Assembly: GCA_044224715.1 (NCBI GenBank)
Contig: JBGAJV010000017.1
Span: forward strand, 14,415-78,414
Direction: 5' to 3'
Length of the DNA stretch: 64,000 nt
From: Anaerolineales bacterium
Lineage (GTDB): Bacteria > Chloroflexota > Anaerolineae > Anaerolineales > UBA6663
Shown here: positions 11,668 to 63,999 of the stretch, one piece after another
Layout of the letters: each line of letters begins with the position of its first letter
Numbering within the stretch: the stretch's first letter is position 1
Notes under the pieces: generated by a model
What the model was told of the DNA's origin: nothing
The model's input: the letters and a program-made list of their open reading frames with translations, nothing else
Database searches by the model: none
Translations under genes and position numbers: made by a program

Positions 11668-14217
11668 TCACGCCAACGGCAACATCAACGTCACGGTCGT
11701 GCCGCGGCCGAGGCCGGCCGAATGCAGGTCAAGCGTGCCGCCCATCATCTCCGCCAGTCGACGCGAAATCGAGAGGCCCAGCCCCGTGCCGCCGTGACGG
11801 CGCTGGCTCGTGCCGTCGGCCTGCACGAAGGGCTCGAAGAGCCTGGCCTGTTTGTCGGGCGCGACGCCGATGCCCGTGTCGTGCACGATGAGCCGGGCGA
11901 CGCCGGCCGCGGTATCCGGCTCGACCCGCACGGAGACCGAGCCTTCGTGCGTGAACTTGACCGCGTTGCCGACCAGGTTGATGAGGATCTGACCGAGACG
12001 GGTGGCGTCGGCGAGCACGGCGAGCGGCGTGGACGGGATCTGCATGTCGAGCGTCAGGCGCTTGGCGTCGGCCTGGACCCACATCAACATGTACGTCTCG
12101 GCCAGCACCCCGGCGACGTCGACGGGTTGCAGCGCCAGATCGATCCGGCCGGCCTCGATCCGGGCGATGTCGAGCAGGTCGTTGACGATGTGCAACAGGT
12201 TGGTGGCGGCGTCGTGCGCGATCTGTGCGAAGTGCTTGCCCTGATCGGCCGTGTCGACTTCGTCGTTGAGCAGGAGATTGAGCGACCCCAGGATCGCGGT
12301 CAACGGCGTGCGCAGCTCATGCGAAGTATTGGCCAGGAACTCGCTCTTGATCTGATTGGCTTCCTCGGCGGCCTGGCGCGCCTCGTCGAGCCGTTCGAGC
12401 AACAAGGCGTTGGCGACCGCCAGCGCGGCCTGGTCGGCGAAGGCCGCGATCAGCCGCTGCGCCCGCGCATCGAAGCCGTCGACGATGTCGCTCTGCAGGT
12501 CGAGCACCCCGATGACGGTCTCGCCCGAGAGCAGCGGCACCGCCAACTCGGCGCGCGTGCGCGGCTCGTTGGCCACGTAGCGCGGGTCGGCCGCCACGTT
12601 GGGCGCGTAAACCGGCGCGCCGGTGCGCACGGCCTCGATCGTCAGACCCGGGCCGTCGAGCCGCAGCGGCGCCGTCGCGCGGACCGTGAACGGGCCGCGG
12701 CGCGCGAGACGGCGCAACTCGCCCGACCTGGAATCGACGATCAACACGCCGCAGTCGGCGAGCTTGAACTCGTCGGTCAGCACGTCGGCGATGATCTCGC
12801 CCGCCTCGGCCAGGCTCTCGCCAGGGCGCATCAGTCGGGTGGAGGCGCGATAGAGCGCGCTCAACTCCTGGGTCTGCTGCTCCAATCGGGCTTCGGCGCG
12901 GGCGCGCTCGGCGAGCTGCGTGCGCAGCGAACCGACGAGCCTGGCGTTGTCGAACGCCGCCGCGGCCTGGGCCGCCACCGACGTGAGCAGCTCGAGATGT
13001 TCAGCCGTGAAGGCGCCGCGCCGGGTGCCGTCCTGCACGCCGATCATGCCGATGACGCGGTCGCCCGAGAGCATCGGCACGCCCAGGAAGCTGCGCGCCA
13101 TCGGGCCGTTGGGCGGCGTCAGCCCGTTCGCGCGAACAAAGGGCTCGACGCCGTCGTTGAGCAACAACGCCTCGCGCGTCCGAATGACGTATTCGGTGAC
13201 GCCGTTGCCGAATGGGCGCGTGTGCATGGGCTGCCGTTCGCCCTGGAGAAACTGCAACGGGAACGAAACCTCAACGCGCGTCTCGTCCACGAGACCGACG
13301 TAGATGCTTCCGGCTTCGAGCACGCGCGGCAGGTTGACGGCGAGCGCTTCGAGGATCTCGGCCGGCGGCGCCAACCGCGATAGCGCCTGACCGACCTCGT
13401 TCAGCAACGCGGCTTCGTCGTGGCGGCGCCGCAGGTTGAGTTCGGCTTCCTTGCGGTGCGCGATGTCGTGACCGCTGAGCAGAAAACCGCCGACCTCGGG
13501 CATCCCGCGTAGATCGCTCAACACACACTCGTACACGCGCGCGGGCCTGTACCGTGGATGGCCCCGCAGCTCGAAGGGCGCTGTCGGCTCGCCGGGATGG
13601 CTTTGCGCCTCCTCGATCTGGCGCCGAAGGATGTCCCGATCGTCGGGGTGAATGAAGATCGTGAGCGATCGACCCGCGAGTTGGGCTGCCGAAAACCCGG
13701 TCTCGCGTTGCGTCGTCCCGGCGGCGCTCAAGATGCGGGCTTCGGCATCGATCACGCCGACGATGCCGTGCGAGTGTTGCATCAAGGCCTGAACGCGCTC
13801 CTGGCTGGCGCGCAGCTGGCCCTCGGCGTGTCGACGTCCGGTGATGTCCGCCGCGATCACCTGAAACGCCCGCCGCGGTCCGGGGATGGGCAGCACCTGG
13901 AGGTCATACCAATGCTCGGTCCCGTCCAAGATCGAGTGGTAACTCATCTCCATGCGGCTGATCCGGCCGTCGGCGGCCTGCGCCAGCACGGCGGCGCCCT
14001 GGGCTCTCAAGTCGGGGGGGATGCAGTCGAGCACGAACTGGCCGATCGGAGACCCGCCTGTCGCCAGAGGCAATGGGTGGTTTAGATACCGGATGACGTA
14101 GTTCTCGTCCAGCAAGACGACATGATCGGTCAGATTGCGCAGCAGGTCGGCCGGGTCGAGGGCCAGGCTACGGATCGCATCCCGGGCGTCGTCTGCGGGA
14201 AGAGAGGGTTCGCTCAC
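11668..14217 (-). CDS. Cytoplasmic multi-sensor histidine kinase (PAS-PAS-GAF-GAF-HisKA-HATPase_c)
   Basis: 849 aa with H-box [14 protein letters not shown]-box [10 protein letters not shown] and G-boxes HDTGIGV / GGTGLGLSI. No TM segments. Stop lies 18 nt before the rarA start. Confidence 0.92.
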
Positions 14218-49959: not shown

Positions 49960-50359
49960 GACGCCTCGAAATATATCGACACCGAGCGCCGTTGTGCGCT
50001 CGATATCAACTATAGGCACGACCGAAGGCGCCTGAATCCAAATTCCGCGTAAAACCAAAAGAGAAGCGGATTGACCAGGCGAGCGAGACCGGTCTCGCTC
50101 GTGCTGGGTTGCCCAACAGGTTCAGTTTGCCGCGTTCATACGCGTCTTGGTGCGTACGGGCGAGATGTCAGGCGGCTCAAGGCCCAGGCCGGATCGGGTA
50201 CGCGGATCACGGCGGATACGCTGCGGGTGGTGGCCGATCACACGGAAACAGCAGGAATTCGCTCCGCGACATCCGTGCTCATCCGCGTGATCCGTGTACA
50301 AGACCCGGCGCCGGCAGACCAACTGACAACGCGTGCGTGCACACCCGTCTCGCCGGATC

Positions 50360-50388
50360 TTGAACGGCGGCACCAACGCTGTTATAAT
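50360..50388 (+). promoter_or_regulatory. Sigma70-type promoter of tRNA-Val: TTGAAC-17 nt-TATAAT
   Basis: -35 at 50360-50365 and -10 at 50383-50388, 12 nt before the tRNA 5' end. Confidence 0.7.
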
Positions 50389-50400
50389 CGCAATTCGCTC

Positions 50401-50474
50401 GGGCAATTAGCTCAGTTGGTCAGAGCGCACGGTTCACATCCGTGAGGTCACAGGTTCGAGCCCTGTATTGCCCA
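50401..50474 (+). tRNA. tRNA-Val (anticodon CAC), CCA not encoded
   Basis: Cloverleaf folded by hand: acceptor GGGCAAT/ATTGCCC, D-arm GCTC-AGTTGGTCA-GAGC, anticodon arm CACGG-TTCACAT-CCGTG, T-arm ACAGG-TTCGAGC-CCTGT, discriminator A. 74 nt. Confidence 0.95.
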
Positions 50475-50483
50475 CAGCCGAAA

Positions 50484-50507
50484 GGCCACGCCCAGCGTGG
50501 CCTTTTT
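50484..50507 (+). terminator. Intrinsic terminator after tRNA-Val
   Basis: GGCCACG-cccag-CGTGGCC followed by TTTTT. Confidence 0.85.
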
Positions 50508-50721
50508 CGTTGCCGCAATCTCCTGACAGCAGAGCAGCCACCGCTTCGCGGCAAAGCGTGCGTTTGACTGCGCGAGATGCGCTTGTCTACCGATCGACAG
50601 GTCGCCGGGCGTTCAGGGCGTCGAAGTGGTTATACTTGGCCCGACAGCACAGTCGCTTCATCAATCCGTTTAGGCGTCGGCCTCGGCGCACGTGACCGAC
50701 GCAATCAAGGAGACAGCCGCA

Positions 50722-51723
50722 ATGGCGCGTCCAGTCACCCTCTTCACCGGCCAATGGGCCGATTTGCCTTTCGAGGTCCTCTGCGCCAAGGCCAAGTCGT
50801 TCGGTTACGATGGCCTCGAGATCGCCTGCTGGGGCGATCACTTCGAGGTCGACAAGGCCCTCAGCGACGACGCCTACATCCGCTCGCGTCACGACATCCT
50901 GGCCAAGCACGGGCTCAAGTCGTGGGCGATCTCGAACCACCTGGTCGGCCAGGCCGTGTGCGACAACATCGACGGCCGGCACAAGTCGATCGTGCCCGAG
51001 CGCATTTGGGGCGACGGCAAGGAAGACGGCGTGCGGCGGCGCGCCCAGCAGGAGATCATGGACACGGCCCGTGCCGCCCAGAAGTTTGGCGTCAAGGTCG
51101 TGCCGGGCTTCACGGGCTCGTCGATCTGGCCGTATCTGTATTCGTTCCCGCCGAACCCGCCGGATCTGGTCGCAAACGGCTATAAGTTCTTCGCCGAAAT
51201 GTGGAACCCGATCCTCGACGTCTTCGACGAGGTCGGCGTCAAGTTCGCGCTCGAGGTGCACCCGACCGAGATCGCGTTCGACGTCGCCTCGGCCGAGGCC
51301 GCGCTGAATGCGCTCGGCCGTCGTCCAGCGTTCGGCTTCAACTACGATCCGAGCCACTTCGTCTATCAGAACGTCGACTACGTCGGCTTCATCCGCAAGT
51401 TCGCGGACCGGATCTATCACGCCCACATGAAGGACGCCTACATCTCGCCGACCCGGCGCGAGGGCGGCGTCTTCGGTGGGCACCTCGACTTCGGCGATCC
51501 GCGCCGCTCGTGGGACTTCCGCACGTTGGGCCGCGGCTCGGTCGACTTTGAGGAGATCATCCGCGCGCTCAACGACATCGGCTATCAAGGCCCGCTCTCG
51601 GTCGAGTGGGAAGATGGCAAGATGGATCGCGAGCACGGCGCGACCGAGGCGGCAGCCTTCGTCCGCAAGCTCGACTTCCCGCCGTCGGCGATCGCCTTCG
51701 ACGCGGCTTTCGAGCGAAAATAA
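50722..51723 (+). CDS. Sugar phosphate isomerase/epimerase (xylose isomerase-like TIM barrel)
   Basis: ATG 50722 preceded by [48 protein letters not shown]... 333 aa. Confidence 0.85.
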
Positions 51724-51830
51724 GCCAGCCCCGCGAAACGTAGAGCAGGGGGGCGAGGAGCACGCACGCGCGGGCTTCTCGCCCCTCGCGCTATTCCCGT
51801 CGCTGTCAGTGTGCGCTCCCGGAGGTCATC

Positions 51831-53024
51831 ATGGCAGGAATCGGCTCCAGCGAGATGGCCCGTCCAAAGCTGAGCGGAAAGATCCCGGAGATCGGCGTCG
51901 GCATGCTCGGGTATGCCTTCATGGGCACGGCGCACTCCAATGCTTTTAAGAAGATCCCCTACATGATCTACCCGCCGGCGGCGATCCCCAAGATGGTCAT
52001 GGTGGCGGGGCGGAGCGAAGACGGCGTGCGGGTCGCGGCCGAGCGTTTCGGGTATGAGAGCTACACCACCGATTGGCGCAAGCTCGTCAAGAACGACCGC
52101 GTGCAGTTGTTTGACAACGGCGGCCCGAACGACGCGCATGCCGCTCCGTGTATCGCCGCGGCGCGGGCCGGCAAGCACATCCTGTGTGAGAAGCCTTTGG
52201 CGCGAAACGCCCGCGAGGCCGGTCGCATGCTCGACGCGGTCGTCAAGGCGGGCGTGGTGCACGCCGTGGCGTTCAATTACCGGTTCGTGCCGGCGGTGCG
52301 TCTGATCCGCGACCTGATCGACTCGAACAAGCTCGGCCAGATCTACCACTTCCGCGCCGCGTATCGGCAGGAGTGGATCATGCCGCACTATTCCATCCCG
52401 ATGAACTGGCGGCTACGCAAGAAGCAAAGCGGCAGCGGGGCGCTGGGCGACATCGGCGCGCACATCATCGATCTGGCCCGCTACCTGGTCGGTGAGCCGC
52501 GGCGTGTGTGCGGCGCCACGCAGACGTTCATCAAGGAGCGGCCCGTGATGGGCACCCGGCGCATGGAGCGCGTCGACGTCGACGACGCCTTCGGCTCTGT
52601 CGTCGAATTCGAGAACGGCGCGCTCGGCACGATCGAGGCCACGCGCTTCGCGGCGGGTCGCAAGAACTACAACGTGCTCGAGATCAACGCCGAGCATGGA
52701 TCGATCCGGTTCAACCTCGAACGCATGAACGAACTCGAGGTCTTTTGGGTCGGCGAAGAGCCGCGCGACACGCGCGGTTTCCACGTCGTCAACGTCAGCG
52801 AGAGCTATCATCCGTTCTGGAAGCACTGGTGGCCGCAGGGCCATATCATCGGCTGGGAGCACACCTTCATCCACGAAATCCACCATCTGCTCGAGGCCAT
52901 CGTCTCGGGTCAGGGAGTGGCGCCCTACGGCGCCGACTTCGAGGACGGCTACAAGAACGCCGTGATCTGCGACGCGATTTTGGCCTCGGCCCGAACCGGC
53001 AGACGCCTGGCGATCAAATACTGA
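51831..53024 (+). CDS. Gfo/Idh/MocA-family NAD(P)-dependent oxidoreductase
   Basis: 397 aa with N-terminal Rossmann IGVGMLGYAFMGTAHS and ...HILCEKPLA... Confidence 0.88.
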   Translation: MAGIGSSEMARPKLSGKIPEIGVGMLGYAFMGTAHSNAFKKIPYMIYPPAAIPKMVMVAGRSEDGVRVAAERFGYESYTTDWRKLVKNDRVQLFDNGGPNDAHAAPCIAAARAGKHILCEKPLARNAREAGRMLDAVVKAGVVHAVAFNYRFVPAVRLIRDLIDSNKLGQIYHFRAAYRQEWIMPHYSIPMNWRLRKKQSGSGALGDIGAHIIDLARYLVGEPRRVCGATQTFIKERPVMGTRRMERVDVDDAFGSVVEFENGALGTIEATRFAAGRKNYNVLEINAEHGSIRFNLERMNELEVFWVGEEPRDTRGFHVVNVSESYHPFWKHWWPQGHIIGWEHTFIHEIHHLLEAIVSGQGVAPYGADFEDGYKNAVICDAILASARTGRRLAIKY

Positions 53025-53046
53025 GGCTGTGACCAGCCTCTTCCTG

Positions 53047-53091
53047 GATGTGTCAGACGAGCCGGGTGTTGCCCGGCTCGTCTGACACATC
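53047..53091. terminator. 20-bp perfect inverted repeat (probable U-tract-less terminator)
   Basis: GATGTGTCAGACGAGCCGGG-tgttg-CCCGGCTCGTCTGACACATC, 23 nt after the oxidoreductase stop. Confidence 0.6.
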
Positions 53092-53104
53092 GAGCCAAAT
53101 CAGG

Positions 53105-54268
53105 ATGCCCATGACATCTGCAGTGCAGGATGTGGTCGGACCCGCGGCCACCTTGAATCGGGTGCTGCCCGGCGCCTATCTGACGATGCTGACCCAAAGC
53201 CTGACGATCAATTTCCTCGGGCCGGTGCTGCCTCTTCTGGCCGTCGAGAACGCAACTACGCCGGAAGCGCTGGGCCTGGTGTTTTCGCTCCAGGGCGTCG
53301 GGTATCTGGGCGGCACGCTGTTGGCCAATCGCGTCGCCGGAAGGATCGGGCTGCGCGCGGGGATCGCGGTGGGGCTCGGCTTGCTCGGTCTCGGACTGGT
53401 GGGCGTTCTGACTTTGCCGTTGCCCTGGCTGTACGCCGCCGTCTTCCTCGAATCCCTGGGGAGCGTGCTGGCCGAGGTGCAGCTCAATCGTGTGGTCGAG
53501 TACTTCGCCGGTGATCGACCGGGCAAGACTTTGAACCGTCTGCACAGCATGTGGGGCATCGGCGGGATCGTGGCCGCGCTGGTCACCGCGACCCTGATCG
53601 CGGCCGGGCTGCCATGGCGCTGGATGGGCGGGGTGGCACTGGCCGTTCTTGGCCTCACGCTGTTTCAGGTGCTGCGCTGGCCGTGGGTGGACGCCCCGGC
53701 CGATACGCCGGAAGCGGCGACCGACCACGGCGCCGGCGCGAGCGCCTGGGCCGTGATGCTGCCGTTCGGGCTAGTGTACGTGCTGTACATCGGGCTCGAG
53801 ATCTCGACCTCGTCCTGGGCTACGACGTTCTACGCTGGGCTCGGTGAGGGCGTGCTCTTGGGCGCACTGGCGACGGCCGGCTACTTCCTGTTGTTCACAT
53901 TCGGGCGCTGGTTTATCGGGCCGGCAGTGGACCGCTTCGGGTTGATGCGGATGGTGCGGATCAGCCTGATCGTCGCCCTGGCCGGCACGGCGCTAACCGC
54001 CTGGGCGCCGGCGCGCTGGCTGGGTTTCGCCATTGCCGGGCTCGGGCAGAGCCTGGTCTTTCCAACCTTCCTGGTCTGGGGCGTGCGGCGACATCCGAGA
54101 TGGCGGCCTGAGTTGAACGCGCTTGCGCTCGGCGGGTCGAGCGTCGGAAGCATGGTCATCCCCTATCTAGTTGGGCTCGGGGTTGCCATTTGCGGCGCGC
54201 CGGCCCTCACGCCATTGCTCGTCGGCCTCACACTCGTCGTGCTCGGCGCCACCTTCATCACGCGCTGA
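53105..54268 (+). CDS. MFS transporter
   Basis: Start trimmed to MPMTSAVQDVV...; 387 aa, about 12 TM helices. Confidence 0.8.
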   Translation: MPMTSAVQDVVGPAATLNRVLPGAYLTMLTQSLTINFLGPVLPLLAVENATTPEALGLVFSLQGVGYLGGTLLANRVAGRIGLRAGIAVGLGLLGLGLVGVLTLPLPWLYAAVFLESLGSVLAEVQLNRVVEYFAGDRPGKTLNRLHSMWGIGGIVAALVTATLIAAGLPWRWMGGVALAVLGLTLFQVLRWPWVDAPADTPEAATDHGAGASAWAVMLPFGLVYVLYIGLEISTSSWATTFYAGLGEGVLLGALATAGYFLLFTFGRWFIGPAVDRFGLMRMVRISLIVALAGTALTAWAPARWLGFAIAGLGQSLVFPTFLVWGVRRHPRWRPELNALALGGSSVGSMVIPYLVGLGVAICGAPALTPLLVGLTLVVLGATFITR

Positions 54269-54320
54269 ACCACGACCATCCCAGCACTCATTCGCCCAAT
54301 CACCCATTCACCCAAATTCT

Positions 54321-55061
54321 ATGGCTCCTGATCTCTCGGCCCTCATCATCATTGCGTTGGTTGCGTTTCTGGTCGGCGTGACGAAAGGCGGCTTTGGCGG
54401 TCTGGGCGGGCTGTTGACGCCGGTGCTCGCGCTGATCATGGCCCCGGCCGCGGCCACAGGTGTGTTGCTGCCTCTGCTGATCTTCGGCGATTGGTTTGCG
54501 GTGTACAGCTATCGCGGCGAGTGGGATATGAAGGTGTTCTGGAGCATGTTGCCGGCCGCGGCGGTCGGGTCGCTGATCGGCACCTGGCTGCTCACCGCGC
54601 TGTCGCCCAGCGGGCTGCGGATCGTCCTGGCGGTCTTCATCTTGATCCTGGTGGCGTACAAGTTCATCAGCGACCGGCTGCAGTCGTGGCGCTACGTCCC
54701 CAGCCCGTGGCATGGTCCAGCGGCCGGCGGTCTGGCCGGGCTGTTCTCGGGGCTCTTCAACAACGGCGGCCCGACGTTCAACGCGTATCTCTTGCTGCAG
54801 AAGCTGAAGCCGCGGACGTTTATCGCCACCAGCGCGTTGTTCTTCGCGATCCTTAACCTGATCAAGATCCCGTTCTTCTATTTCGCCGGAATCCTCAGCC
54901 TGGAGCGCACGCTGGGCGTGGGCTGGGCGTTCCTGCTTGTGCCGCTCGGGATCTTCGTCGCGCGCCGCATCGTTCTTCGGCTCGACCCGCAACGTTTCGA
55001 AGGCGTGATCATCGCGTTGCTTGTTCTTTCGAGCTTGATTCTGATCTGGCAGGCATGGTAG
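54321..55061 (+). CDS. TauE/SafE-family sulfite/anion exporter
   Basis: Start trimmed to MAPDLSALIIIALVAFLVGVTKGGFGGLGG (family-typical N-terminus). 246 aa. Confidence 0.85.
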   Translation: MAPDLSALIIIALVAFLVGVTKGGFGGLGGLLTPVLALIMAPAAATGVLLPLLIFGDWFAVYSYRGEWDMKVFWSMLPAAAVGSLIGTWLLTALSPSGLRIVLAVFILILVAYKFISDRLQSWRYVPSPWHGPAAGGLAGLFSGLFNNGGPTFNAYLLLQKLKPRTFIATSALFFAILNLIKIPFFYFAGILSLERTLGVGWAFLLVPLGIFVARRIVLRLDPQRFEGVIIALLVLSSLILIWQAW

Positions 55062-55070
55062 GTTTGTGCC

Positions 55071-55116
55071 AAAACGAAAGACGCCGGCCGTCACGATGGC
55101 CGGCGTCTTTCGTTTT
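55071..55116. terminator. Bidirectional intrinsic terminator between the TauE-like gene and surE
   Basis: AAAACGAAAGACGCCGGCC-gtcacgat-GGCCGGCGTCTTTCGTTTT. Confidence 0.88.
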
Positions 55117-55131
55117 GCACTGGTAGGTATT

Positions 55132-55926
55132 TCAATCGCCGAGCCAGTCTTTCAACTCCGTCAACGCCAGCCGCGACGTGAGGTCGATGCTGAGCGGTGT
55201 CACCGAAACGACCTTGTCGGCGACGGCGCGGATATCGGAGTCGGCGCCGGCAGCCGGGTCGACGAACTGGCGCCAGCGGATGCGGCCGGGGTGCTGCAGA
55301 TCGGTGCCGGTGCGGTACGGCGTGTAGAAGGGCTTGCGCGACTGCCGCGTCACGCGCCAGGGCGTCTGCGGCGTGGCGTTATCGGGCACCTCGATCTTGA
55401 GGATGTCGACGTCGAAGGGCAGGGCGCGGCCGAGCACGCGTTCGGCGAAGTACCGCGTCCACGCGGCGGCTTCGGTGAAGTCGATGTGATCGGCGTTCGA
55501 GAAGAAATGCGCCTCGTCGACCTCCATCGAGACGGCCAGCGCCGGCAGACCGATGGCCGCGGCGTCGAGTGCGGCGCCGACCGTGCCCGAAGCCGTCAGC
55601 CCCGAGCCGACGTTGTCGCCGTAGTTAATGCCCGACATCACCAGATCCGGACGGCGCGGCAGCAATTCAAGCACGGCGTGATGAATGCACTGGCCCGGGC
55701 TGGCGTCGACGGCGTAGGCCGTCAGACGCGCGCCGTCGACCTCGCGCGAAACGTCGGCCACACGGCCTGTGACGTTGGTCGGATGGGCTCGGCCGATGCT
55801 TGTGTATTGCTTGTCGGGGGCCACGATCACGACCTCGCCGAGCGCGCGTAGCGCGGCGGCCGCGGTCCACAGGCCAGGCGATTCGATGCCGTCGTCGTTG
55901 GAGCAGAGGATCAGGGGTTGGCTCAT
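55132..55926 (-). CDS. surE: 5'/3'-nucleotidase SurE
   Basis: 264 aa with MSQPLILCSNDDGIESPGL and SGINYGDNVG. Confidence 0.93.
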   Translation of the reverse strand: MSQPLILCSNDDGIESPGLWTAAAALRALGEVVIVAPDKQYTSIGRAHPTNVTGRVADVSREVDGARLTAYAVDASPGQCIHHAVLELLPRRPDLVMSGINYGDNVGSGLTASGTVGAALDAAAIGLPALAVSMEVDEAHFFSNADHIDFTEAAAWTRYFAERVLGRALPFDVDILKIEVPDNATPQTPWRVTRQSRKPFYTPYRTGTDLQHPGRIRWRQFVDPAAGADSDIRAVADKVVSVTPLSIDLTSRLALTELKDWLGD

Positions 55927-56019
55927 ACGCCCGATTGTAACGGCTCGCCGGCTTCGGGGTCGAAGTCACCCAGAGCGTCGTCGGACATCCCCCGACGGGG
56001 ATCGCAGACCAGATCCCGA

Positions 56020-56052
56020 AACAACAACGGGCGCCCATATGGGCGCCCGTTG
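56020..56052 (-). terminator. Intrinsic terminator after lexA
   Basis: Perfect palindrome AACGGGCGCCCA-ta-TGGGCGCCCGTT followed on the minus strand by GTTGTTGTTTCGG. Confidence 0.8.
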
Positions 56053-56076
56053 CATTGGGATCGGGAGCGTTCGCGC

Positions 56077-56748
56077 TCAGTTGGCCATCTGGCGCATGAC
56101 CATGACGACCTTGCCCTGCACCTGCACCTGGGCCGGGTTGTCGATCATGATCGGCCCCATGGTCGGGTTCGCCGGCTGCAGCCGGATCTTGCCGTTTTCG
56201 CGGAAGAAGTACTTGAGCGTGGTCTCGTTGCGGTCGGTGAGCCAAACCGCGACCATGTCGCCGTTCCGGGCCTGATCGGCGCGCTTCATGACGACGATGT
56301 CGCCGTCGGCGACCATGGCGTCGATCATCGAGTCGCCTTTGACGCGCAGGGCGAACAGATCGCCGCTGTCGTTGACGAGGTTGCGGGTCAGCTCGATGTA
56401 CTCGTCCGACGAGGTCTGGGCCGCGTCGCCGACCATCACGGGCTCGCTGGCGAAGATGAAGCCCGCCACCGGCACCTGCACGGCCGGCACGCCATGGCGG
56501 CGGCTGGTGAGCCCGGCCGCGCGCTCGCCCGCCTCCGTCAAGCGCACACCGCGCGATACTTTGAGGTCGCGCAGGATATAGCCTTCGCGTTCGAGTTTGG
56601 TCAGGTTGTAGTTCACGACCGACGTCGAGGAAATGCCAGCGGCCTCGCCGATCTCGCGGATGGTCGGGGGGTAATCCCGGTTTTCGGCGAAGTTGCCGAT
56701 GAAGCGCAGGATCTCAACCTGCCGCGTCGAAAGCTTGCCTTTAGCCAT
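56077..56748 (-). CDS. lexA: LexA repressor
   Basis: Start trimmed to MAKGKLSTRQVEILRFI with GGGAGA upstream. wHTH region; cleavage/Ser-Lys dyad contexts VAGFI, VKGDSMIDA and MVAVWLTDRNETTLKYF. Confidence 0.95.
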   Translation of the reverse strand: MAKGKLSTRQVEILRFIGNFAENRDYPPTIREIGEAAGISSTSVVNYNLTKLEREGYILRDLKVSRGVRLTEAGERAAGLTSRRHGVPAVQVPVAGFIFASEPVMVGDAAQTSSDEYIELTRNLVNDSGDLFALRVKGDSMIDAMVADGDIVVMKRADQARNGDMVAVWLTDRNETTLKYFFRENGKIRLQPANPTMGPIMIDNPAQVQVQGKVVMVMRQMAN

Positions 56749-56818
56749 GCGCATCTCCCGTGTGGCTGGGAAATCGATCACCCGCCACCAATGGCACAAA
56801 TGAGCGAATCTGGCCTGT

Positions 56819-56847
56819 ATTTTAGATCATGTGTTCGGTGAAGTCAA
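56819..56847 (-). promoter_or_regulatory. lexA promoter TTGACT-17 nt-TAAAAT with the LexA box GAACACATGATC (56825-56836) occupying the spacer
   Basis: Minus strand reads cTTGACTtcaccGAACACATGATCTAAAATacagg. The box directly abuts the -10. Confidence 0.7.
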
Positions 56848-57111
56848 GCAGGCAGAAATCCGCTGGAATTCCGGCCCTTTGGGAGCCGATTGGGCCCCGG
56901 GTAGAACGTCCGTTTGGCGCGGCGCGCAGCCGAAGGCATGGTGGCGAAGTCGAACACGGATCAGGGCGGAGCATTCAGGCGGCCACCGCGACAGTCCACT
57001 GAAAGTTCGTGTGGCGATGTTTTCAGACACTCGAGGGCGATGACGGCATGTACAATGCCTCGCGCGGTGACGACTGCGCGATCACGCCAACGACACGACC
57101 CCAACAACGCC

Positions 57112-57900
57112 ATGTCCTCGATCTCCGACCAGACCTTCCTACATCTGAGTGATCTTCATCTCGCCAACACGCTCGACGGCATCTCGTACGAGGTCTCGGC
57201 CGTGGGGCAACTGCGCCGCGTGCTGGCGGCCGCCCGAGCCGCCGACGCGACGCCGACCTGCGTCATCGTCAGCGGAGATCTGTCGGATCGTGGAGAGCCA
57301 GATAGCTACGCGGTACTGCGCGACGTCATGCCCGAGCTCGAGGCCTTCAACGTCCCGGTGTTGATCGGTCTTGGCAACCACGACCGCCGGGTGCCGTTCC
57401 GCCAGGTTTATCTGGGTGAGACCGAGGCCGATGAACAGGCGCCGTACTATTACAAACGCGTCATCGGCGACCTGCACGTGTTCATGCTCGACAGCAAGGT
57501 GCCGGGCAAGGTCGCGGGCGAGTTGGGGCAGGCGCAACGCGATTGGCTGGCCGACGAGCTCACGCGCACGCCGCCTGGCCAGGCGCTGATCGTGTTGCAT
57601 CATTCGGTGAACCTGTGGGGAATCCGCAACGTCGATGAAGACGAACTGGCCGACGCGCGCGAGCTGGCCGAGATCCTGACGCCGCACGCCGTGCTGGGCG
57701 TGCTCGGCGGCCATCTGCACTTCAGCGTGGTCGCGGCCTATGCGGGCTCGGTGTCGATCACGGCGCCGGGCGTCGTCAACCAGTGGGACCCGACCTGCGC
57801 GACCATGCGCGTGAACCCCTGGCCCGGCTTCAATCTGTGCACGGTGCGCGGCGGGCGGCTGCTCGTCAACCCCGTCGTGCTTGGCCCGGCTCAAGGTTAG
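57112..57900 (+). CDS. Calcineurin-like metallophosphoesterase (CpdA-type)
   Basis: Start trimmed to MSSISDQTFLHLSDLHL (DxH). Also SGDLSDRG, GNHD and VLHHS motifs. 262 aa. Confidence 0.88.
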   Translation: MSSISDQTFLHLSDLHLANTLDGISYEVSAVGQLRRVLAAARAADATPTCVIVSGDLSDRGEPDSYAVLRDVMPELEAFNVPVLIGLGNHDRRVPFRQVYLGETEADEQAPYYYKRVIGDLHVFMLDSKVPGKVAGELGQAQRDWLADELTRTPPGQALIVLHHSVNLWGIRNVDEDELADARELAEILTPHAVLGVLGGHLHFSVVAAYAGSVSITAPGVVNQWDPTCATMRVNPWPGFNLCTVRGGRLLVNPVVLGPAQG

Positions 57901-57988
57901 AAAATCGCCTTCTATTCAATAAAGTCGTTTTTTGAATGACCGGTAATTGCCGAGGATTTTGAATGGACCTGACAGGTCGAAGGTTAGA
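57895..57988 (+). promoter_or_regulatory. Conserved 94-nt element, copy B (GGTTAGA...87 nt...GGTTAGA with palindrome GACCTGACAGGTC at 57966-57978)
   Basis: Same length and conserved ends as 21534-21627, with an AT-rich interior. Function unknown. Confidence 0.7.
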
Positions 57989-58610
57989 ATCCGCCCCGGC
58001 GCCCAACCTCCGGCGGTTGCGCGCCGACGACGCGGAGACGATCGCGGCGGCTTTCGCGGCGCAGGGTTGGGCCAAGCCGGCCGAGCAGTACCGGCGCTAC
58101 GCCGCCGAGCAGACCGCGGGCGCGCGCATCACGCTCGTCGCCGAAGTCGACGGTGTCTTCGCCGGCTACGTCAACGTGTTGTGGGTGTCGCCCTATGCCA
58201 GTTTTCGCGCGGCCGGCATCCCTGAAATCGCCGACTTCAATGTGCTCGAGCGTTTCCAGCGCCGCGGGATCGGCACCGCGCTGATGGATGCCGCCGAGGC
58301 CCTGATCGCCGAGCGCTCACCGGTCGCCGGCATCGGCGTGGGCCTGACGGCCGATTACGGGGCCGCTCAGATCCTGTACATCAAACGCGGCTATGTGCCC
58401 GACGGGCGTGGCCTCGTCTACCGCGACCAGCCCGCGCCGCATGGCACATCCGTCACGGTCGACGACGACCTCGTGCTCTACCTGACCCGCGTCGTAGGGC
58501 CAGGCGCTACAGAGCGCCCCACAACTTCTGCACCGCGGCGAGCGCGGCGTCGGCCGAGCCGGCCGGGAACAACTCGAAGCCCACATACCCGCGATACCCG
58601 CCGCGCTTGA
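57963..58610 (+). CDS. GNAT-family N-acetyltransferase (start uncertain; the 3' tail overlaps the convergent gene)
   Basis: Acetyl-CoA motif FQRRGIGTALMDAA. ATG 57963 lies inside the conserved element; TTG 58017 is an in-frame alternative. The last ~35 codons are Arg/Pro-rich and overlap 58507-58610. Confidence 0.75.
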   Translation: MDLTGRRLESAPAPNLRRLRADDAETIAAAFAAQGWAKPAEQYRRYAAEQTAGARITLVAEVDGVFAGYVNVLWVSPYASFRAAGIPEIADFNVLERFQRRGIGTALMDAAEALIAERSPVAGIGVGLTADYGAAQILYIKRGYVPDGRGLVYRDQPAPHGTSVTVDDDLVLYLTRVVGPGATERPTTSAPRRARRRPSRPGTTRSPHTRDTRRA

Positions 58611-59906: not shown

Positions 59907-62900
59907 TCACTTCTCCACGCCGACCGGGAACCACAGCCGGACGTAGGTGCCGCCGGCCATGCGCCGGCCGATGGCCAACCGGCCGTTGAGTTGTTCCGCG
60001 TCGTCGAGCATGTCGGCCAGGCCGAAGTGCCCGTTGCGGATCAGCGTGAGCGCGTCGGTCTCGCCCTCCTTGAGCGGAATGCCGACGCCGTCGTCCTCGA
60101 CGACCAGCACGAGATGCAGGCCTTCGCGCCGCAGCGTCAGCCAGATGTTCTTCGCCTGGGCGTGCTTGCGCGCGTTGCTCAAGGCGTTGTCGACGATGTT
60201 GTGCACGGGCCACTTGGCCTCGACCGGCAGATCGAACTCGCGCGAGAGTTGGATGTCGCTGTGGTATTGCGTCTCGGGCGCCTCGGTCGCGGCGCGGCGC
60301 AGCGCCTGCTCCATCAGCAGCGCCAGCGGCGCGTTGAGCGACGCGGGACGGATGGCGGTGACGACCTGGCGGATCGCGTCATCGACCTTGATGACTTCCT
60401 GTTCCTGACGCGCGAGCATGTCGCGCAGCGAGGCGTCCTCGCTCCGTTGCGCGGCGATGGCCAGATAGCCGGGCAACGGCGCCAGCGATTGCAGCACCTC
60501 GGCATGCAATCGCCGGGCGATGCGGGTGCGTTCCTCGCGCTGCGTCTGCTCGCGCTCGCGATACGGCCGCAGCGCCGCCCAGCGCAAGGCGATGACCTGC
60601 AGCGGCGCCGCCAGGGCTTCGGCCACTTCGGCGGCGCGTTTCAGATCGGCGTTCTCGTACGGCCGGCTCCGTCGTGGCAATAGGAGACAGCCCAGCGGCG
60701 GCTGATCCTCGACGCGGATCGGCTGCGCGACGGCGATCCACGGCGCCGCCAACCAGCCGTCACGACCGCGCTCATCCGACGCGACAAGACAATCCTCGGG
60801 CGGGGCGGCCGGCAGGGTGCCCTCGTCCAGCGTCAACGTCTCAGTCTCCAGCGCGCGGCGCAGCATCCAGCCCGGTCGGCCGGGCTGCTCGTGCGCCAGG
60901 ATCAGCCCAGGCACGCCCAGGGCATCGCACAACTCGACAAGCGCCTGATCGATCGCTTCGAGCGTCGGGCGTCGGAGCAGGGCGCGCTCCAGCGCGCTGG
61001 CTCGTCCCGCGGCGAGCGGCGTCGTCCAATCGCGCAGACCGATCACCACAAGGATCATGCCGGCGACCGCGAGCGCGATGTCGATCGCCCACGGCGCGCC
61101 CCAGCCGCGCAGCGCCAGGCTGGCCAGCACGTACAGGGTCGCGACGGCGCTGATCCATAACACCGGAGCCAGACGACGCTCGAGGCGCACCATGCGCGTC
61201 GCCGGGTTCCAAAACACGAACCCGAACGTCACGGGCGTCAACATCGCAAAGAGGACGGCGGCCGACACCCAGCCAGGCGCGGCGCTCAAGAGCTCGGGCA
61301 CGACGTACGCCAGAAGAATGGCCCCGAGGATCGCGGGCGTCAGGGGCAGCGCGGCGCCGCCGGTCAACAGACCCAATTGCGTGCGCTGCGCCGAGCGATG
61401 TGTCGCAAGAAAGCGCAACGTGATGGCCAGGACGAAGACCACGCCGCCGATGATCACCATCAGCGCCGTCAACCAGAGCGACAGGGTGTGGATCGATGCG
61501 GGACCGAACAGCGCCAGAAGATTGGCGCCCGCCACGACCAGCCCAAGCCCGCCGACCACGCGGATCACGCCGCTGACATACAGCGGCACCTGCGCGCCCG
61601 TCGTCGGCAGCCAGCCGAGCCGTGGCAGACGCCCGGCCCCGATGGGGAGCGTCGCCACGGCCACCCAGTACACCGACGGCCCGGCGACCAGGGCCGCCAG
61701 ACCCACGCCGATCAGGGCGAACGTGAGCGCGGCGTCGCTGGCGCCCGGTCGCGCCTTCGGGTGGCCCACCCAGAGCAACGCGCTCACCAGGACGTACACC
61801 ACGGCGCAAACGCTCAACGCCACGGTGTAGAGCTCACCCGCGCGCACGGCCAGGCCCGTGGCGATCATCACAACGGCCGCGCCGGCGACGGCGATCGCGG
61901 CCGCGGTTCGACCGATGGGGTGTGCGAACACCCGCGGCGGAGCCATCAGGATCTCATCGACCAGCAGGCCGGTCGAGACCGCGCCCGCCGGCTGGCGAAT
62001 GTAGTTCGCCCAGGCCAGAACGCCGATCGCGGACAGGGCCACGCCGCCGAACAACCAGTAGGCGGCGATCGGCGCAGCCGGCCCTGACCCGACCAACGGG
62101 GTGAGCCAGGGCGCCAGGACGCCGCCCGGGGCCAGCGCCGGCGTCAGCATCCGCTCGATGACGATCCCGGCGGTCGCGATGCCGATCACGCTGACCGAGA
62201 AACTCACCAGATCGGCCGCGCCCAATTGCAGCTGGCGCAGCGGCGCGGGCAACGCCCTGCGTTCCACAGCAAACAAGGGCAGGATCGACGCCATCGAGAC
62301 GATGAACAGGAAGCTATAGGCGACCGCCCAGAACGCGACCGGCGCGACCAGGCTGACGCCGACCAGGCTGACCAGACCGGCGACGATGAACCCGCCGAAG
62401 AAGACGACAGGTCGCTCGAGTTGCTTCTTGAAGCTGTTGTGGACCCGCGATCCGACCAGGAGCCCGACCAGGGCGCCGCTCTGAATCCACAGGAACACGT
62501 CTGGCCGCCCATCGCCGCGCAGCAGCGACAACGGGAAGAGCAGGCTCGACAGCACGCCCAGGAAGAAGTTCGCCCCCATGGCCGCCAGCTGGATGTTGGC
62601 CAGCCGCGGGCGTTGGAAGATGACGGTCAACCCGGTATTGACGTCGTTCAAGACCTGGCCGAGGGTGGCGCCGGTGCCTTCGGCCTTCTGCGCCTGCACG
62701 GCCTTGGGGTGAGCAGCCAGCTCCGCCAGCGCCAGCATCGCGCCGACGATGCCAAGGACCAGAACACCCGGCCGCCCGAACAGGATCAGCACCACGCCGG
62801 CCGCGATTTCGGGCACCAGCCCTTCGACACCGTCGCCGATCAACGTGTCGACCGTGTTCTCGATGGGCGGCGAGAATCGTTTGCGGGTGTTCCGCAACGC

Positions 62901-63272
62901 GCGATAGATGATGACCGTCGGCACCAGCAGCACCGGGGCGATGCCGCCCACGATCCAGGGGTTGATCAGACCGGTGGCGTGCAACGTCATCAAGACGGCG
63001 TCGACGAGGAAGATCGCCACGGCGCAGGTCAGCACCAGCCCTGGCCCGGGGAACCGCGTCGAGATCGCGTAGATCATCGGCGCCGTGAGCGCGAAGACCG
63101 CATAGGCCAGGGCGAAACTGAAGGTGAAGGGGAGCAGGCTGCCGCCGAAGACGTACTGGCTGAGCACGAGGCCGAAGACGCCCGCGCGCAGGAGCACCTC
63201 GACGCTGCCGGTGACGACGAGCCGGCGCAGCCCGCTCCAGAATTGCGCGGGCGATACGGTCGCGTCGGTCAT
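59907..63272 (-). CDS. Giant sensor histidine kinase: MFS-transporter-like polytopic N-terminal region + additional TM bundle + GAF-like domain + HisKA_3 + HATPase_c
   Basis: 1121 aa with H-box RIARRLHAEVLQSL, N-box DNALSNARKHA and G-box EDDGVGIP. The first ~700 aa are almost continuously hydrophobic, with an MFS-style central loop ...LGQVLNDVNTGLTVIFQRPRLANIQLAAMGANFFLGV... Confidence 0.85.
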   Translation of the reverse strand: MTDATVSPAQFWSGLRRLVVTGSVEVLLRAGVFGLVLSQYVFGGSLLPFTFSFALAYAVFALTAPMIYAISTRFPGPGLVLTCAVAIFLVDAVLMTLHATGLINPWIVGGIAPVLLVPTVIIYRALRNTRKRFSPPIENTVDTLIGDGVEGLVPEIAAGVVLILFGRPGVLVLGIVGAMLALAELAAHPKAVQAQKAEGTGATLGQVLNDVNTGLTVIFQRPRLANIQLAAMGANFFLGVLSSLLFPLSLLRGDGRPDVFLWIQSGALVGLLVGSRVHNSFKKQLERPVVFFGGFIVAGLVSLVGVSLVAPVAFWAVAYSFLFIVSMASILPLFAVERRALPAPLRQLQLGAADLVSFSVSVIGIATAGIVIERMLTPALAPGGVLAPWLTPLVGSGPAAPIAAYWLFGGVALSAIGVLAWANYIRQPAGAVSTGLLVDEILMAPPRVFAHPIGRTAAAIAVAGAAVVMIATGLAVRAGELYTVALSVCAVVYVLVSALLWVGHPKARPGASDAALTFALIGVGLAALVAGPSVYWVAVATLPIGAGRLPRLGWLPTTGAQVPLYVSGVIRVVGGLGLVVAGANLLALFGPASIHTLSLWLTALMVIIGGVVFVLAITLRFLATHRSAQRTQLGLLTGGAALPLTPAILGAILLAYVVPELLSAAPGWVSAAVLFAMLTPVTFGFVFWNPATRMVRLERRLAPVLWISAVATLYVLASLALRGWGAPWAIDIALAVAGMILVVIGLRDWTTPLAAGRASALERALLRRPTLEAIDQALVELCDALGVPGLILAHEQPGRPGWMLRRALETETLTLDEGTLPAAPPEDCLVASDERGRDGWLAAPWIAVAQPIRVEDQPPLGCLLLPRRSRPYENADLKRAAEVAEALAAPLQVIALRWAALRPYREREQTQREERTRIARRLHAEVLQSLAPLPGYLAIAAQRSEDASLRDMLARQEQEVIKVDDAIRQVVTAIRPASLNAPLALLMEQALRRAATEAPETQYHSDIQLSREFDLPVEAKWPVHNIVDNALSNARKHAQAKNIWLTLRREGLHLVLVVEDDGVGIPLKEGETDALTLIRNGHFGLADMLDDAEQLNGRLAIGRRMAGGTYVRLWFPVGVEK

Positions 63273-63276
63273 CGGC

Positions 63277-63999
63277 TCAGACCTGGCTCGCGGCGCTCAA
63301 CGGCCCGGTGCCGCGCAGTCGGATGATGCCCTGCTGCATGAGGATCACAAGGGCGGCGCCGCGCGTCGGGGCGTCGAGCTTCTTCATCACCGCGCTGAGC
63401 TGGTTCTTGACCGTCTGCTCGGACTTGTAGAGCTTGGTCGCCAGGTCGCGCGGCGTCGCGCGCACGTCTTTGCTGAGGGCCAGCATCAGATCGAGCTCGG
63501 CCGGGCTCAGATCGAGCATCGCCCGACGCGGGCCGGCGCCAAGCGAGTCGCTCACCTTGTTCGAGAAGACCAGCTGGCCCGACATCGCCTCGAGGATGCG
63601 GGCGGGCAGGTCGCGCGTGCGCTGATCGGATTTGAGCAGGTAGCCGCAAACCGTGTCCGACGCGAACCCCAGATCGAGCACGTCGTAGTGAAACTCGGTC
63701 GAGAGCAGCAACACGCGCGTTTGCCACTCTTTGAGCGACAGCGTGAGCTTGCGCAGTTCCTCGAGCGTCGGAAAGGGGTCTTCGACCGCGTACCCGCCGC
63801 GGCGGGTGGGGATCATCACGTCTAGCAGCAGCACGTCGGGACGCGCTTCGAACATCCCGGCCAGGTCCTCGCCGGCCCAGCCCTCGGCGATCAGGGCGAT
63901 GTCGGTTCGACCCTGGAGCTGGAAGCGAACGTAGTCGTGCAGCGGGTAATCGTCGTCCAGAATCGCGACCGTCACCGCTTTGGGCTGCTGGGCGTCCAT
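63277..63999 (-). CDS. LuxR-family response regulator (REC with enlarged alpha3 region + HTH)
   Basis: 240 aa with VAILDDD, LLLDVMIP, LLLST and YLLKSD. C-terminal LSPAELDLMLALSKDVRATPRDLATKLYKSEQTVKNQLSAVMKKL. Stop lies 4 nt before the kinase start. Confidence 0.88.
   Translation of the reverse strand: MDAQQPKAVTVAILDDDYPLHDYVRFQLQGRTDIALIAEGWAGEDLAGMFEARPDVLLLDVMIPTRRGGYAVEDPFPTLEELRKLTLSLKEWQTRVLLLSTEFHYDVLDLGFASDTVCGYLLKSDQRTRDLPARILEAMSGQLVFSNKVSDSLGAGPRRAMLDLSPAELDLMLALSKDVRATPRDLATKLYKSEQTVKNQLSAVMKKLDAPTRGAALVILMQQGIIRLRGTGPLSAASQV

Follow-up and report, generated by a model that had tools for sequence, protein, structure and literature searches.

The present analysis concerns a two-component gene pair at one end of a 64,000-nucleotide stretch of DNA from an Anaerolineales bacterium (contig JBGAJV010000017.1; hereafter the window), in which the gene for a response regulator of the NarL/FixJ type is followed by the gene for a sensor histidine kinase of 1121 amino acids (aa). 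Profile, alignment and fold comparisons identify residues ~12-430 of this kinase as a genuine, very diverged, 12-helix domain of the major facilitator superfamily (MFS), of the DHA3/EntS/Mef exporter type; it is followed by a module of ten further transmembrane (TM) helices, a cytoplasmic linker and a HisKA_3-type kinase core. On balance, the MFS domain probably serves as a receptor for ligand occupancy that no longer performs a normal transport cycle and that feeds a NarL-class two-component system, so that the protein would be a 22-TM receptor kinase. A more specific version, in which the exporter-derived domain is an outward-facing receptor whose signal travels sideways, through a novel 10-TM transducer, to a kinase of the HisKA_3 class that has a non-canonical H-box, is offered tentatively.

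Both genes were found as drawn in the preliminary description of this DNA, with the regulator gene 4 nt upstream of the kinase gene (the spacer gccg lies between the regulator stop codon TGA, 63279-63277, and the kinase ATG at 63272), and their assignment to a two-component pair is supported. The third-position GC content is 0.89 in both open reading frames (ORFs), as for real genes in a window of 65-70% GC, and a protein identical to the kinase is present in NCBI, with no name attached. Five full-length orthologues of the kinase occur in independent Anaerolineales assemblies, with identities of 94, 62, 58, 59 and 59% over the N-terminal 768 residues, and the intact full-length fusion is thus present in at least six independent assemblies. 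Because the five orthologues are intact and a distant relative, described below, is collinear with them, the fusion of MFS domain and kinase is judged to be real; an assembly joint between two genes, which had been named as a finding that would overturn the earlier proposal, is ruled out.

For the kinase, 22 TM helices (12 + 10) with an inside N-terminus are predicted from hydropathy, the secondary structure of an AlphaFold2 (AF2) model and the positive-inside rule; the membrane region of many helices described earlier for the first ~700 residues therefore stands, with a count of 22 in place of about twenty. The cytoplasmic loops of the membrane part carry 27 lysine and arginine residues and the external loops 5, which places the kinase core in the cytoplasm. 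TM1-6 (residues 12-187) and TM7-12 (residues 224-423) are joined by a 36-residue central cytoplasmic loop that contains an amphipathic helix (residues 204-220), so that the proposed organization of two six-helix halves around such a loop is recovered both by hydropathy and by DSSP assignment of the AF2 model.

The MFS relationship of the N-terminal domain is carried mainly by profile comparisons. When 1.84 billion representative proteins were searched with a profile of residues 1-768, built from the window protein and its five orthologues, 47 hits were obtained. Those beyond the orthologues and their fragments match only positions ~20-446 of the query (best E value 3.6e-16); most are proteins of ~410-460 aa, and those scanned are MFS_1/MFS_3 proteins. 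Nineteen of the 20 scanned hits reach Pfam MFS_1 (E values from 8e-5 to 3e-36) and most of them also MFS_3, the twentieth, P0033, giving a weak MFS_1 match. TIGR00900 (TC 2.A.1.21, DHA3) is matched by all five of the free-standing relatives scanned and by P0052 (3e-16), and Mef, EntS and Tet(V) are the named neighbours of the free-standing relatives. When the N-terminal alignment of the family was compared by hhalign with that of 19 MFS relatives, 384 columns were aligned collinearly with a probability of 99.8% (E value 4e-30), and the segment GQVLNDVNTGL...FPL, which had been likened to the beginning of the second half of EntS/MFS_3-type transporters, matches that part of DHA3/MFS_3 transporters column for column. 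Further corroboration comes from the AF2 model of residues 1-768, in which the predicted local distance difference test (pLDDT) is 80-93 over residues 1-430 and for which the top 50 Foldseek matches in PDB are all MFS transporters (DtpA, MdfA, YegT, NupG and SPNS2), with target TM-scores of 0.6-0.71. Profile search, hhalign and fold search thus bear out the assignment of the first ~420 residues to an MFS-like, EntS/MFS_3-type domain, and the structure and profile checks suggested for it returned MFS transporters only.

The divergence of this domain is such that standard models do not register it. The Pfam MFS models (MFS_1/MFS_3) match none of the six family members even at E<=10, their curated thresholds not being reached, and no Pfam or NCBIfam model of any kind matches residues 1-900 of the six members at that level. 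A PDB sequence and profile search with residues 1-768 gave no match at E<=10, and a word-indexed homologue search using the alignment gained nothing beyond the orthologues. The closest free-standing relatives of residues 1-430 are DHA3/MFS_3 exporters (EntS, Mef(A/B/C), Tet(V); TIGR00900), stand-alone proteins of ~410-460 aa with an intact motif A, whereas the window kinase is ~690 residues longer and lies below all Pfam and NCBIfam MFS thresholds. Other members of the same DHA3-like neighbourhood also carry C-terminal fusions (P0028, 970 aa; P0047, 705 aa; P0031, 569 aa), P0028 having DUF11/CARDB repeats and P0047 a HAD phosphatase, and this MFS lineage seems prone to fusions of that kind.

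The reading of the domain as a receptor is suggested by the loss of motif A, by a reversed pattern of conservation and by the location of the conserved surface at the outward face and the interface helices. Motif A (GxxxDRxGR[KR]), which serves in gating, lies in the TM2-3 loop of MFS transporters and has a counterpart in the TM8-9 loop (here TM10-11-adjacent). Both motif A, as DRxxRR, and the counterpart in the C-terminal half, as QGRVF, are present in 19 of 19 free relatives, and both are missing in six of six kinase-fused proteins, where the first site reads xxxRF(S/P)xxx and the second is a loop without conservation (STRFPGP and ERRALPAPLR in the window protein). In pairwise identity the two motif-A loops are the best loops of the free MFS proteins (0.57 and 0.49) and among the worst of the kinase family (0.46 and 0.25). 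The outward loops of the MFS domain are conserved at 0.77 in the kinase family as against 0.39 for its cytoplasmic loops, compared with 0.33 and 0.35, respectively, in the free relatives (Mann-Whitney p ~1e-8 for the difference in the kinase family, calculated on alignment columns that are not independent). Among the helices, those at the interface of the N- and C-domains (TM5, 7, 8 and 11) are the best conserved (0.67-0.77), and the lipid-facing TM3 (0.31) and TM6 (0.39) the worst. Buried charges specific to the family are invariant in TM1 (E25/R29), TM5 (E150/E155) and TM11 (D354). A very characteristic TM11-12 loop is shared with the free relatives, reading LTPALAPGGVLAPWLTPLVGSGPAAP in the kinase and LEPAMxxGGxLxPxLGPxxGTGPGAG in the relatives.

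The region that follows (residues 436-755) does not belong to the MFS-like part and proved to be a separate module of ten TM helices without detectable relatives. No homologue outside the family was found for it among the 1.84 billion representatives, no Pfam or NCBIfam model matches it at E<=10, and profiles of known sensor modules (MASE1-4, 5TM-LytS, 7TMR-DISM, MHYT and SSF/STAC) do not match residues 436-755. An internal repeat and an MFS relationship were both considered and rejected, the apparent matches being overlapping ends of the sub-alignments. Its most conserved parts are Arg-rich cytoplasmic loops (RLPRL, ATHRSxxRTQL and RxxRLERR; identity 0.69-0.85), the reverse of the pattern in the MFS domain in that here the cytoplasmic loops rank highest. 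The first six helices of the module are modelled by AF2 at moderate confidence.

Between this module and the kinase core, residues ~770-905 are predicted to form a helix, six strands and a long helix (pLDDT ~45-55), and the linker is partly alignable to P0033 from residue 830. The isolated segment matches no Pfam model at E<=10, and neither PDB profile searches nor Foldseek returned anything usable. A separate prediction of residues 436-905 from six sequences reached a pLDDT of 55, with Foldseek matches to generic helical bundles at E>0.07, and no PDB sequence or profile match was obtained for these residues at E<=10. The GAF-like segment proposed earlier is compatible with the low-confidence fold, as would be a PAS-like domain; no profile matches it, and the label is not established.

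The C-terminal 210 residues form a histidine-kinase core, probably of the HisKA_3/HATPase_c type described earlier, and the H, N and G1 boxes quoted at that time were found. Pfam HATPase_c matches residues 1023-1117 with 43.6 bits (cutoff 26.4; 4.5e-11), and HisKA_3 matches residues 914-979 with 18.1 bits, under its cutoff of 24. The NCBIfam models NarX, NarQ, MadS and UhpB align over residues 906-1117, DesK aligns weakly to the dimerisation and phospho-acceptor (DHp) region, and the PhoQ catalytic ATP-binding (CA) domain from PDB matches the catalytic domain at 1.2e-6. Its nucleotide-binding boxes N, G1 and G2 (DNALSNARKHA, DDGVGI and GHFGLADM) have canonical sequences. The usual motif of the HisKA_3 class is H-D-x-x-x-Q, with Asp at position H+1 and Gln at H+5. 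In the H-box of the kinase, LHAEVLQ, the Gln at H+5 is kept and Ala replaces Asp at H+1 in all orthologues; the corresponding sequences are HDDIGQ in UhpB and HGGPLQ in P0033, which also lacks the Asp.

The closest relatives of the whole design are two kinases from JGI metagenomes, P0033 and P0052 (852 and 894 aa), which consist of a DHA3-like MFS domain, TM helices, an alpha/beta linker and a HisKA_3 core. They are collinear with the window kinase (hhalign 99.8%), which implies that the design predates the family found in the window; identity to that kinase is 24% over the MFS part and 32% over the last 300 residues. Shared as well are the motif AEG(T/A)G of the central loop and the lack of Asp in the H-box (LHGG in the metagenome kinases). 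The two proteins differ from the window kinase in having two TM helices in place of ten, a more canonical motif A, and another genomic neighbourhood with no adjacent regulator found; a 229-aa gene next to P0052 was considered as a response regulator and rejected. The 10-TM module may accordingly be a lineage-specific elaboration, or its counterpart may have been lost in the branch of P0033 and P0052.

The regulator aligns over its full length with NarL, VraR and DesR, with a helix-turn-helix (HTH) region through residues 160-226. NCBIfam NarL matches residues 7-223 (1.8e-11) and PDB NarL (1a04) residues 9-224 (8e-9), D15/D16, D60, S100/T101 and K123 being aligned with their NarL equivalents. 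Pfam GerE scores 15.5 against a cutoff of 23.5. Pfam Response_reg matches only residues 11-68, under its cutoff, because 12 extra residues relative to NarL (7 + 5) follow at that point; this insertion corresponds to the enlarged region after the phospho-acceptor Asp noticed previously, and it is kept in all orthologues.

In the mechanism that we propose, the input module would be the 12-TM MFS domain descended from proton-coupled exporters of the DHA3 type (EntS/Mef-like). Binding of an external or membrane-borne ligand, with input at the outward face and the cavity, would shift the conformation of this domain, and the shift would pass laterally within the membrane to the 10-TM module. The strictly conserved, Arg-rich cytoplasmic loops of the latter would then couple it to the linker and the DHp helices and so set the balance of kinase and phosphatase activities at His923, and hence phosphorylation of Asp60 of the regulator. 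The arrangement would be a functional equivalent of UhpC, UhpB and UhpA joined in cis, arisen independently from another MFS family.

Several points weigh against this proposal. The conservation argument comes from five effective sequences of one bacterial order, and the AF2 input alignment included MFS relatives, so that the fold match corroborates the sequence result but depends on it. The path of the relay is conjecture, because pLDDT stays below 55 in the models of the linker and of the second half of the 10-TM module. Some features of transporters persist, namely a PxxxG resembling motif C in TM5, N235 in TM7 and acidic residues in buried positions that could couple protons, and the MFS domain may retain residual transport. 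The H-box without Asp may signify weak or altered autokinase activity, or a role mainly as a phosphatase.

The strongest competitor, which we hold to be unlikely, is a true transceptor or flux sensor, in which the MFS domain would still actively export or import a substrate while its transport cycle is read by the kinase, an equivalent in cis of the flux sensing by BceAB-BceS or of the coupled transport and signalling of the CbrA type. Descent from proton-coupled DHA3 exporters would suit it, as would the retention of all 12 TM helices together with the PxxxG and N235 just mentioned; E155 and D354, acidic, buried and invariant, are possible binding sites for protons or substrate, and the distant relatives P0033 and P0052 have a more canonical motif A (LERFNRQR). 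In the family itself, however, motif A and its twin in the C-terminal half are gone from all six members and the loops concerned are poorly conserved, constraint within the MFS domain is weakest in its cytoplasmic loops, and no member is matched by a Pfam MFS model even at E<=10. Flux sensing, which the preliminary description had entertained, is therefore not favoured, and a receptor appears more likely than a transceptor; the architecture itself is directly observed, and from it and the conservation pattern we infer the loss of transport and the direction of signalling.

Less probable again is a decaying relic or a mere membrane scaffold in place of a receptor, the stimulus being sensed by the 10-TM module (for example, the state of the membrane or envelope) or by the cytoplasmic alpha/beta domain. 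The MFS domain is indeed the fastest-evolving part of the protein: identity among the orthologues is 56% in the MFS domain, 60% in the 10-TM module, 75% in the linker, 93% in DHp and 90% in CA (90-93% in the regulator), and the sensor part evolves much faster than the transmitter and also faster than the neighbouring genes. In addition, the 10-TM module is unique to the family, with its last helices and loops well conserved, and the two TM helices that replace it in P0052 indicate that the modules are separable. Against decay and for purifying selection speak the many invariant positions, including the buried charges, the 0.77 identity of the outward loops and the collinear retention of an MFS domain in a relative of only 24% identity. 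Finally, an erroneous joining of two genes, through a frameshift or in assembly, or else a generic sensor with many TM helices and without MFS relationship, might be invoked from the early ends of database fragments P0006 and P0007 and from the lack of a Pfam MFS match to the kinase, and this alternative, with next to no probability, is already refuted, since those fragments are explained by frameshifts, the full-length fusion recurs in at least six independent assemblies and the MFS homology is backed by profile search, hhalign and fold search. The fragments in question, P0006 (489 aa), P0007 (457 aa) and P0008 (122 aa), match the N-terminus of the kinase and then run into out-of-frame low-complexity sequence (P0006 and P0007 match P0005 and P0002 before an out-of-frame Arg/Ser-rich sequence); by their sequence they are frameshift artefacts of metagenome contigs and no natural stand-alone MFS genes.

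Table 1. Features of the two-component locus and of the genes that follow it (positions are those of the window).
Feature	Position	Strand	Basis or remark
Response regulator gene, 240 aa	63277-63999	minus	NarL/FixJ type (receiver + LuxR/GerE HTH)
Regulator acceptor Asp60 codon	63820-63822	minus	NarL alignment
Receiver insertion after acceptor Asp, 12 extra residues vs NarL (Y70-F76, L89-Q93)	63721-63792	minus	HMMER alignment, NarL-side gaps 7 + 5
Sensor histidine kinase gene, 1121 aa + stop	59907-63272	minus	ORF and translation; 22 predicted TM helices
MFS domain, residues 1-430, diverged 12-TM, DHA3/EntS/Mef-like, motif A degenerate in both halves	61983-63272	minus	Profile search, hhalign, AF2/Foldseek
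Orphan 10-TM module (TM13-22), residues 436-755	61008-61967	minus	Hydropathy, DSSP
Cytoplasmic linker and alpha/beta domain, residues 756-905	60558-61007	minus	DSSP of low-confidence model
DHp / HisKA_3-type dimerisation and phospho-acceptor helices, residues 906-985	60318-60557	minus	HisKA_3, NarX/NarQ/UhpB alignments
Phospho-acceptor His923 codon	60504-60506	minus	H-box RRLHAEVLQ, in RIARRLHAEVLQ
Catalytic ATP-binding domain (HATPase_c), residues 986-1121	59910-60317	minus	N, G1, G2 boxes
HbpS-like / 'heme-degrading domain-containing' protein, 169 aa	59316-59825	minus	Pfam PF03928 1.6e-33; NCBIfam NF002696 1.6e-59
Xylose-isomerase-like TIM-barrel (hydroxypyruvate-isomerase-like) protein, 262 aa	58507-59295	minus	AP_endonuc_2 1.3e-35; TIGR03234 1.5e-42, below cutoff

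Two genes downstream of the pair, encoding an HbpS-like protein and a triosephosphate isomerase (TIM)-barrel protein, are candidate associated genes by conserved adjacency only. The HbpS-like gene starts 81 nt downstream of the kinase gene and adjoins it also at the orthologous loci L001, L003, L004 and L006, and the order regulator, kinase, HbpS-like protein, TIM-barrel protein is kept in all five lineages, the TIM-barrel gene being the last conserved gene before a break of synteny in L003. Because ~13 kb of gene order is shared among these genomes at the kinase locus, this adjacency is weak evidence. The downstream genes lie 73-330 nt from the kinase and have a -10-like box of their own in the orthologues. 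The earlier statement that no obvious target genes are adjacent needs qualification in that these two genes follow the kinase in all five lineages. When the upstream regions of the regulator gene and the HbpS-like gene at the orthologous loci were searched for a shared regulator-binding motif, no convincing operator was found, the search returning dispersed heptamer-palindrome repeats and -10-like boxes instead.

These palindromes are arrays of heptamers (variants of CACGAAT/ATTCGTG and CGCGGAT/ATCCGCG) found at L001:1-130, L003:9060-9160, L004:9080-9180 and 13400-13500, and L006:13370-13560. The arrays precede the regulator gene and, at L004 and L006, also occupy the interval between the kinase and HbpS-like genes; in each case a -10-like box follows some tens of bases downstream. 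The window contains a long imperfect palindrome of the same kind (50188-50309), composed of ATCCG(T/C)G and C(G/A)CGGAT heptamers, the arms of which (50188-50211 and 50286-50309) are 83% complementary; it is located upstream of a sigma-70-like promoter (TTGAAC...TATAAT, ~50359-50389) driving a tRNA-Val(CAC) gene (50401-50475), which is terminated by a perfect hairpin (50481-50505). The element looks like a dispersed intergenic repeat of these Anaerolineales genomes, similar to repetitive extragenic palindromes (REP) or miniature inverted-repeat transposable elements (MITE).

An invariant GTAAAATC box of the extended -10 type lies ~35 nt upstream of the regulator ATG at four orthologous loci (L001:165-175, L003, L004 and L006), being seen at these loci only because the window ends at the regulator start, and its conservation suggests that regulator and kinase are transcribed from a promoter of their own. 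A conserved protein of ~135 aa, which has a single TM helix near its N-terminus and matches no known family, is encoded between QueG and the regulator in L003 (8623-9033) and L004 (8649-9056); it is possibly unrelated to the two-component system. On the other side of the pair, the region 50692-58610 of the window encodes a TIM-barrel isomerase, a GFO/IDH/MocA oxidoreductase, a bona fide MFS_1 transporter (53048-54268), TauE, SurE, LexA, a metallophosphoesterase and a GNAT protein, in an order conserved in L001, L004 and L006. Across these loci LexA is 91-94% identical and the kinase 66-69%, which makes the sensor part of the kinase the fastest-evolving sequence of the region.

Among characterized systems, UhpC/UhpB/UhpA of Escherichia coli is the most similar in signalling logic and composition, with an MFS-fold sensor, a HisKA_3 kinase with many TM helices and a NarL/FixJ regulator. 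Homology is seen in the kinase core, where hhalign aligns residues 913-1116 with residues 303-496 of UhpB (97.3%) and the NCBIfam model UhpB matches at 4e-15. Unlike the Uhp system, the window kinase is a single polypeptide and lacks motif A, and its MFS part is DHA3/EntS-like and not of the organophosphate antiporter type to which UhpC belongs. UhpC and the MASE1 region of UhpB were rejected as direct relatives of the membrane parts of the window kinase, with hhalign probabilities of 1.3% for UhpC and, for UhpB MASE1 against the 10-TM module, 0.1%.

Fusions of transporter domains to kinases, which the preliminary description had called rare, have several precedents. The statement has to be tempered in view of TCDB, where a family 'Sensor Kinase-MFS Fusion', as yet uncharacterised, is catalogued as 2.A.1.34, with Q7VWI9 of Bordetella pertussis, a protein of 17 TM segments, as prototype (PMC3924187). 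As far as the table entry goes, it shares with the window kinase an MFS domain fused to a sensor kinase and differs in being proteobacterial and in having 17 TM segments as compared with 22 here, a comparison made by description only (PMC3924187). Any relationship to this prototype would be distant, since P0028, P0033 and P0047 are the only profile hits of at least 600 aa besides orthologues and fragments, and P0033 is the sole kinase among them. Full-text searches of the literature returned nothing on a histidine kinase fused to an MFS domain beyond one TCDB table row.

The other precedents involve different transporter folds. In the SLC5/STAC kinases (CbrA, CrbS and RpuS), a secondary-transporter domain is likewise fused N-terminally to a histidine kinase (PMC9100948, PMC7918813). 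They differ in their LeuT-fold SLC5 and STAC domains and in their class of kinase and regulators, and the window kinase has no SSF/STAC match. In Ks-Amt5 of 'Ca. Kuenenia stuttgartiensis', the Amt domain has lost transport, signals by binding and drives the fused kinase (PMC5764959); as a transporter domain turned into a binding receptor, it offers the best precedent from experiment for the mechanism that we propose. Ks-Amt5 differs in its Amt fold, its trimeric state, its known ligand and the lack of an extra membrane module. Transporter-fused kinases are thus already known, and the window kinase adds to them a form with an orphan 10-TM module and a non-canonical H-box.

How a transporter domain signals to a kinase is understood in few cases, genetically for UhpC-UhpB, structurally for Ks-Amt5 and partly for CbrA/CrbS. 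The impact of the present finding is limited, since the family occurs in no more than a few genomes of uncultured Anaerolineales and MFS-kinase fusions are already in TCDB, though unstudied. Standard annotation sees only HATPase_c and calls the protein hypothetical, and such receptors are probably under-counted. The family provides a covalent pair of MFS domain and kinase, the sequence pattern of which suggests a receptor and in which the 10-helix module may be an in-membrane relay. If this is true, nature would have united the functions of UhpC and UhpB in one chain, a membrane signalling domain of a new kind would be defined, and the kinase would offer a tractable system for how a histidine kinase reads the conformational state of an MFS protein.

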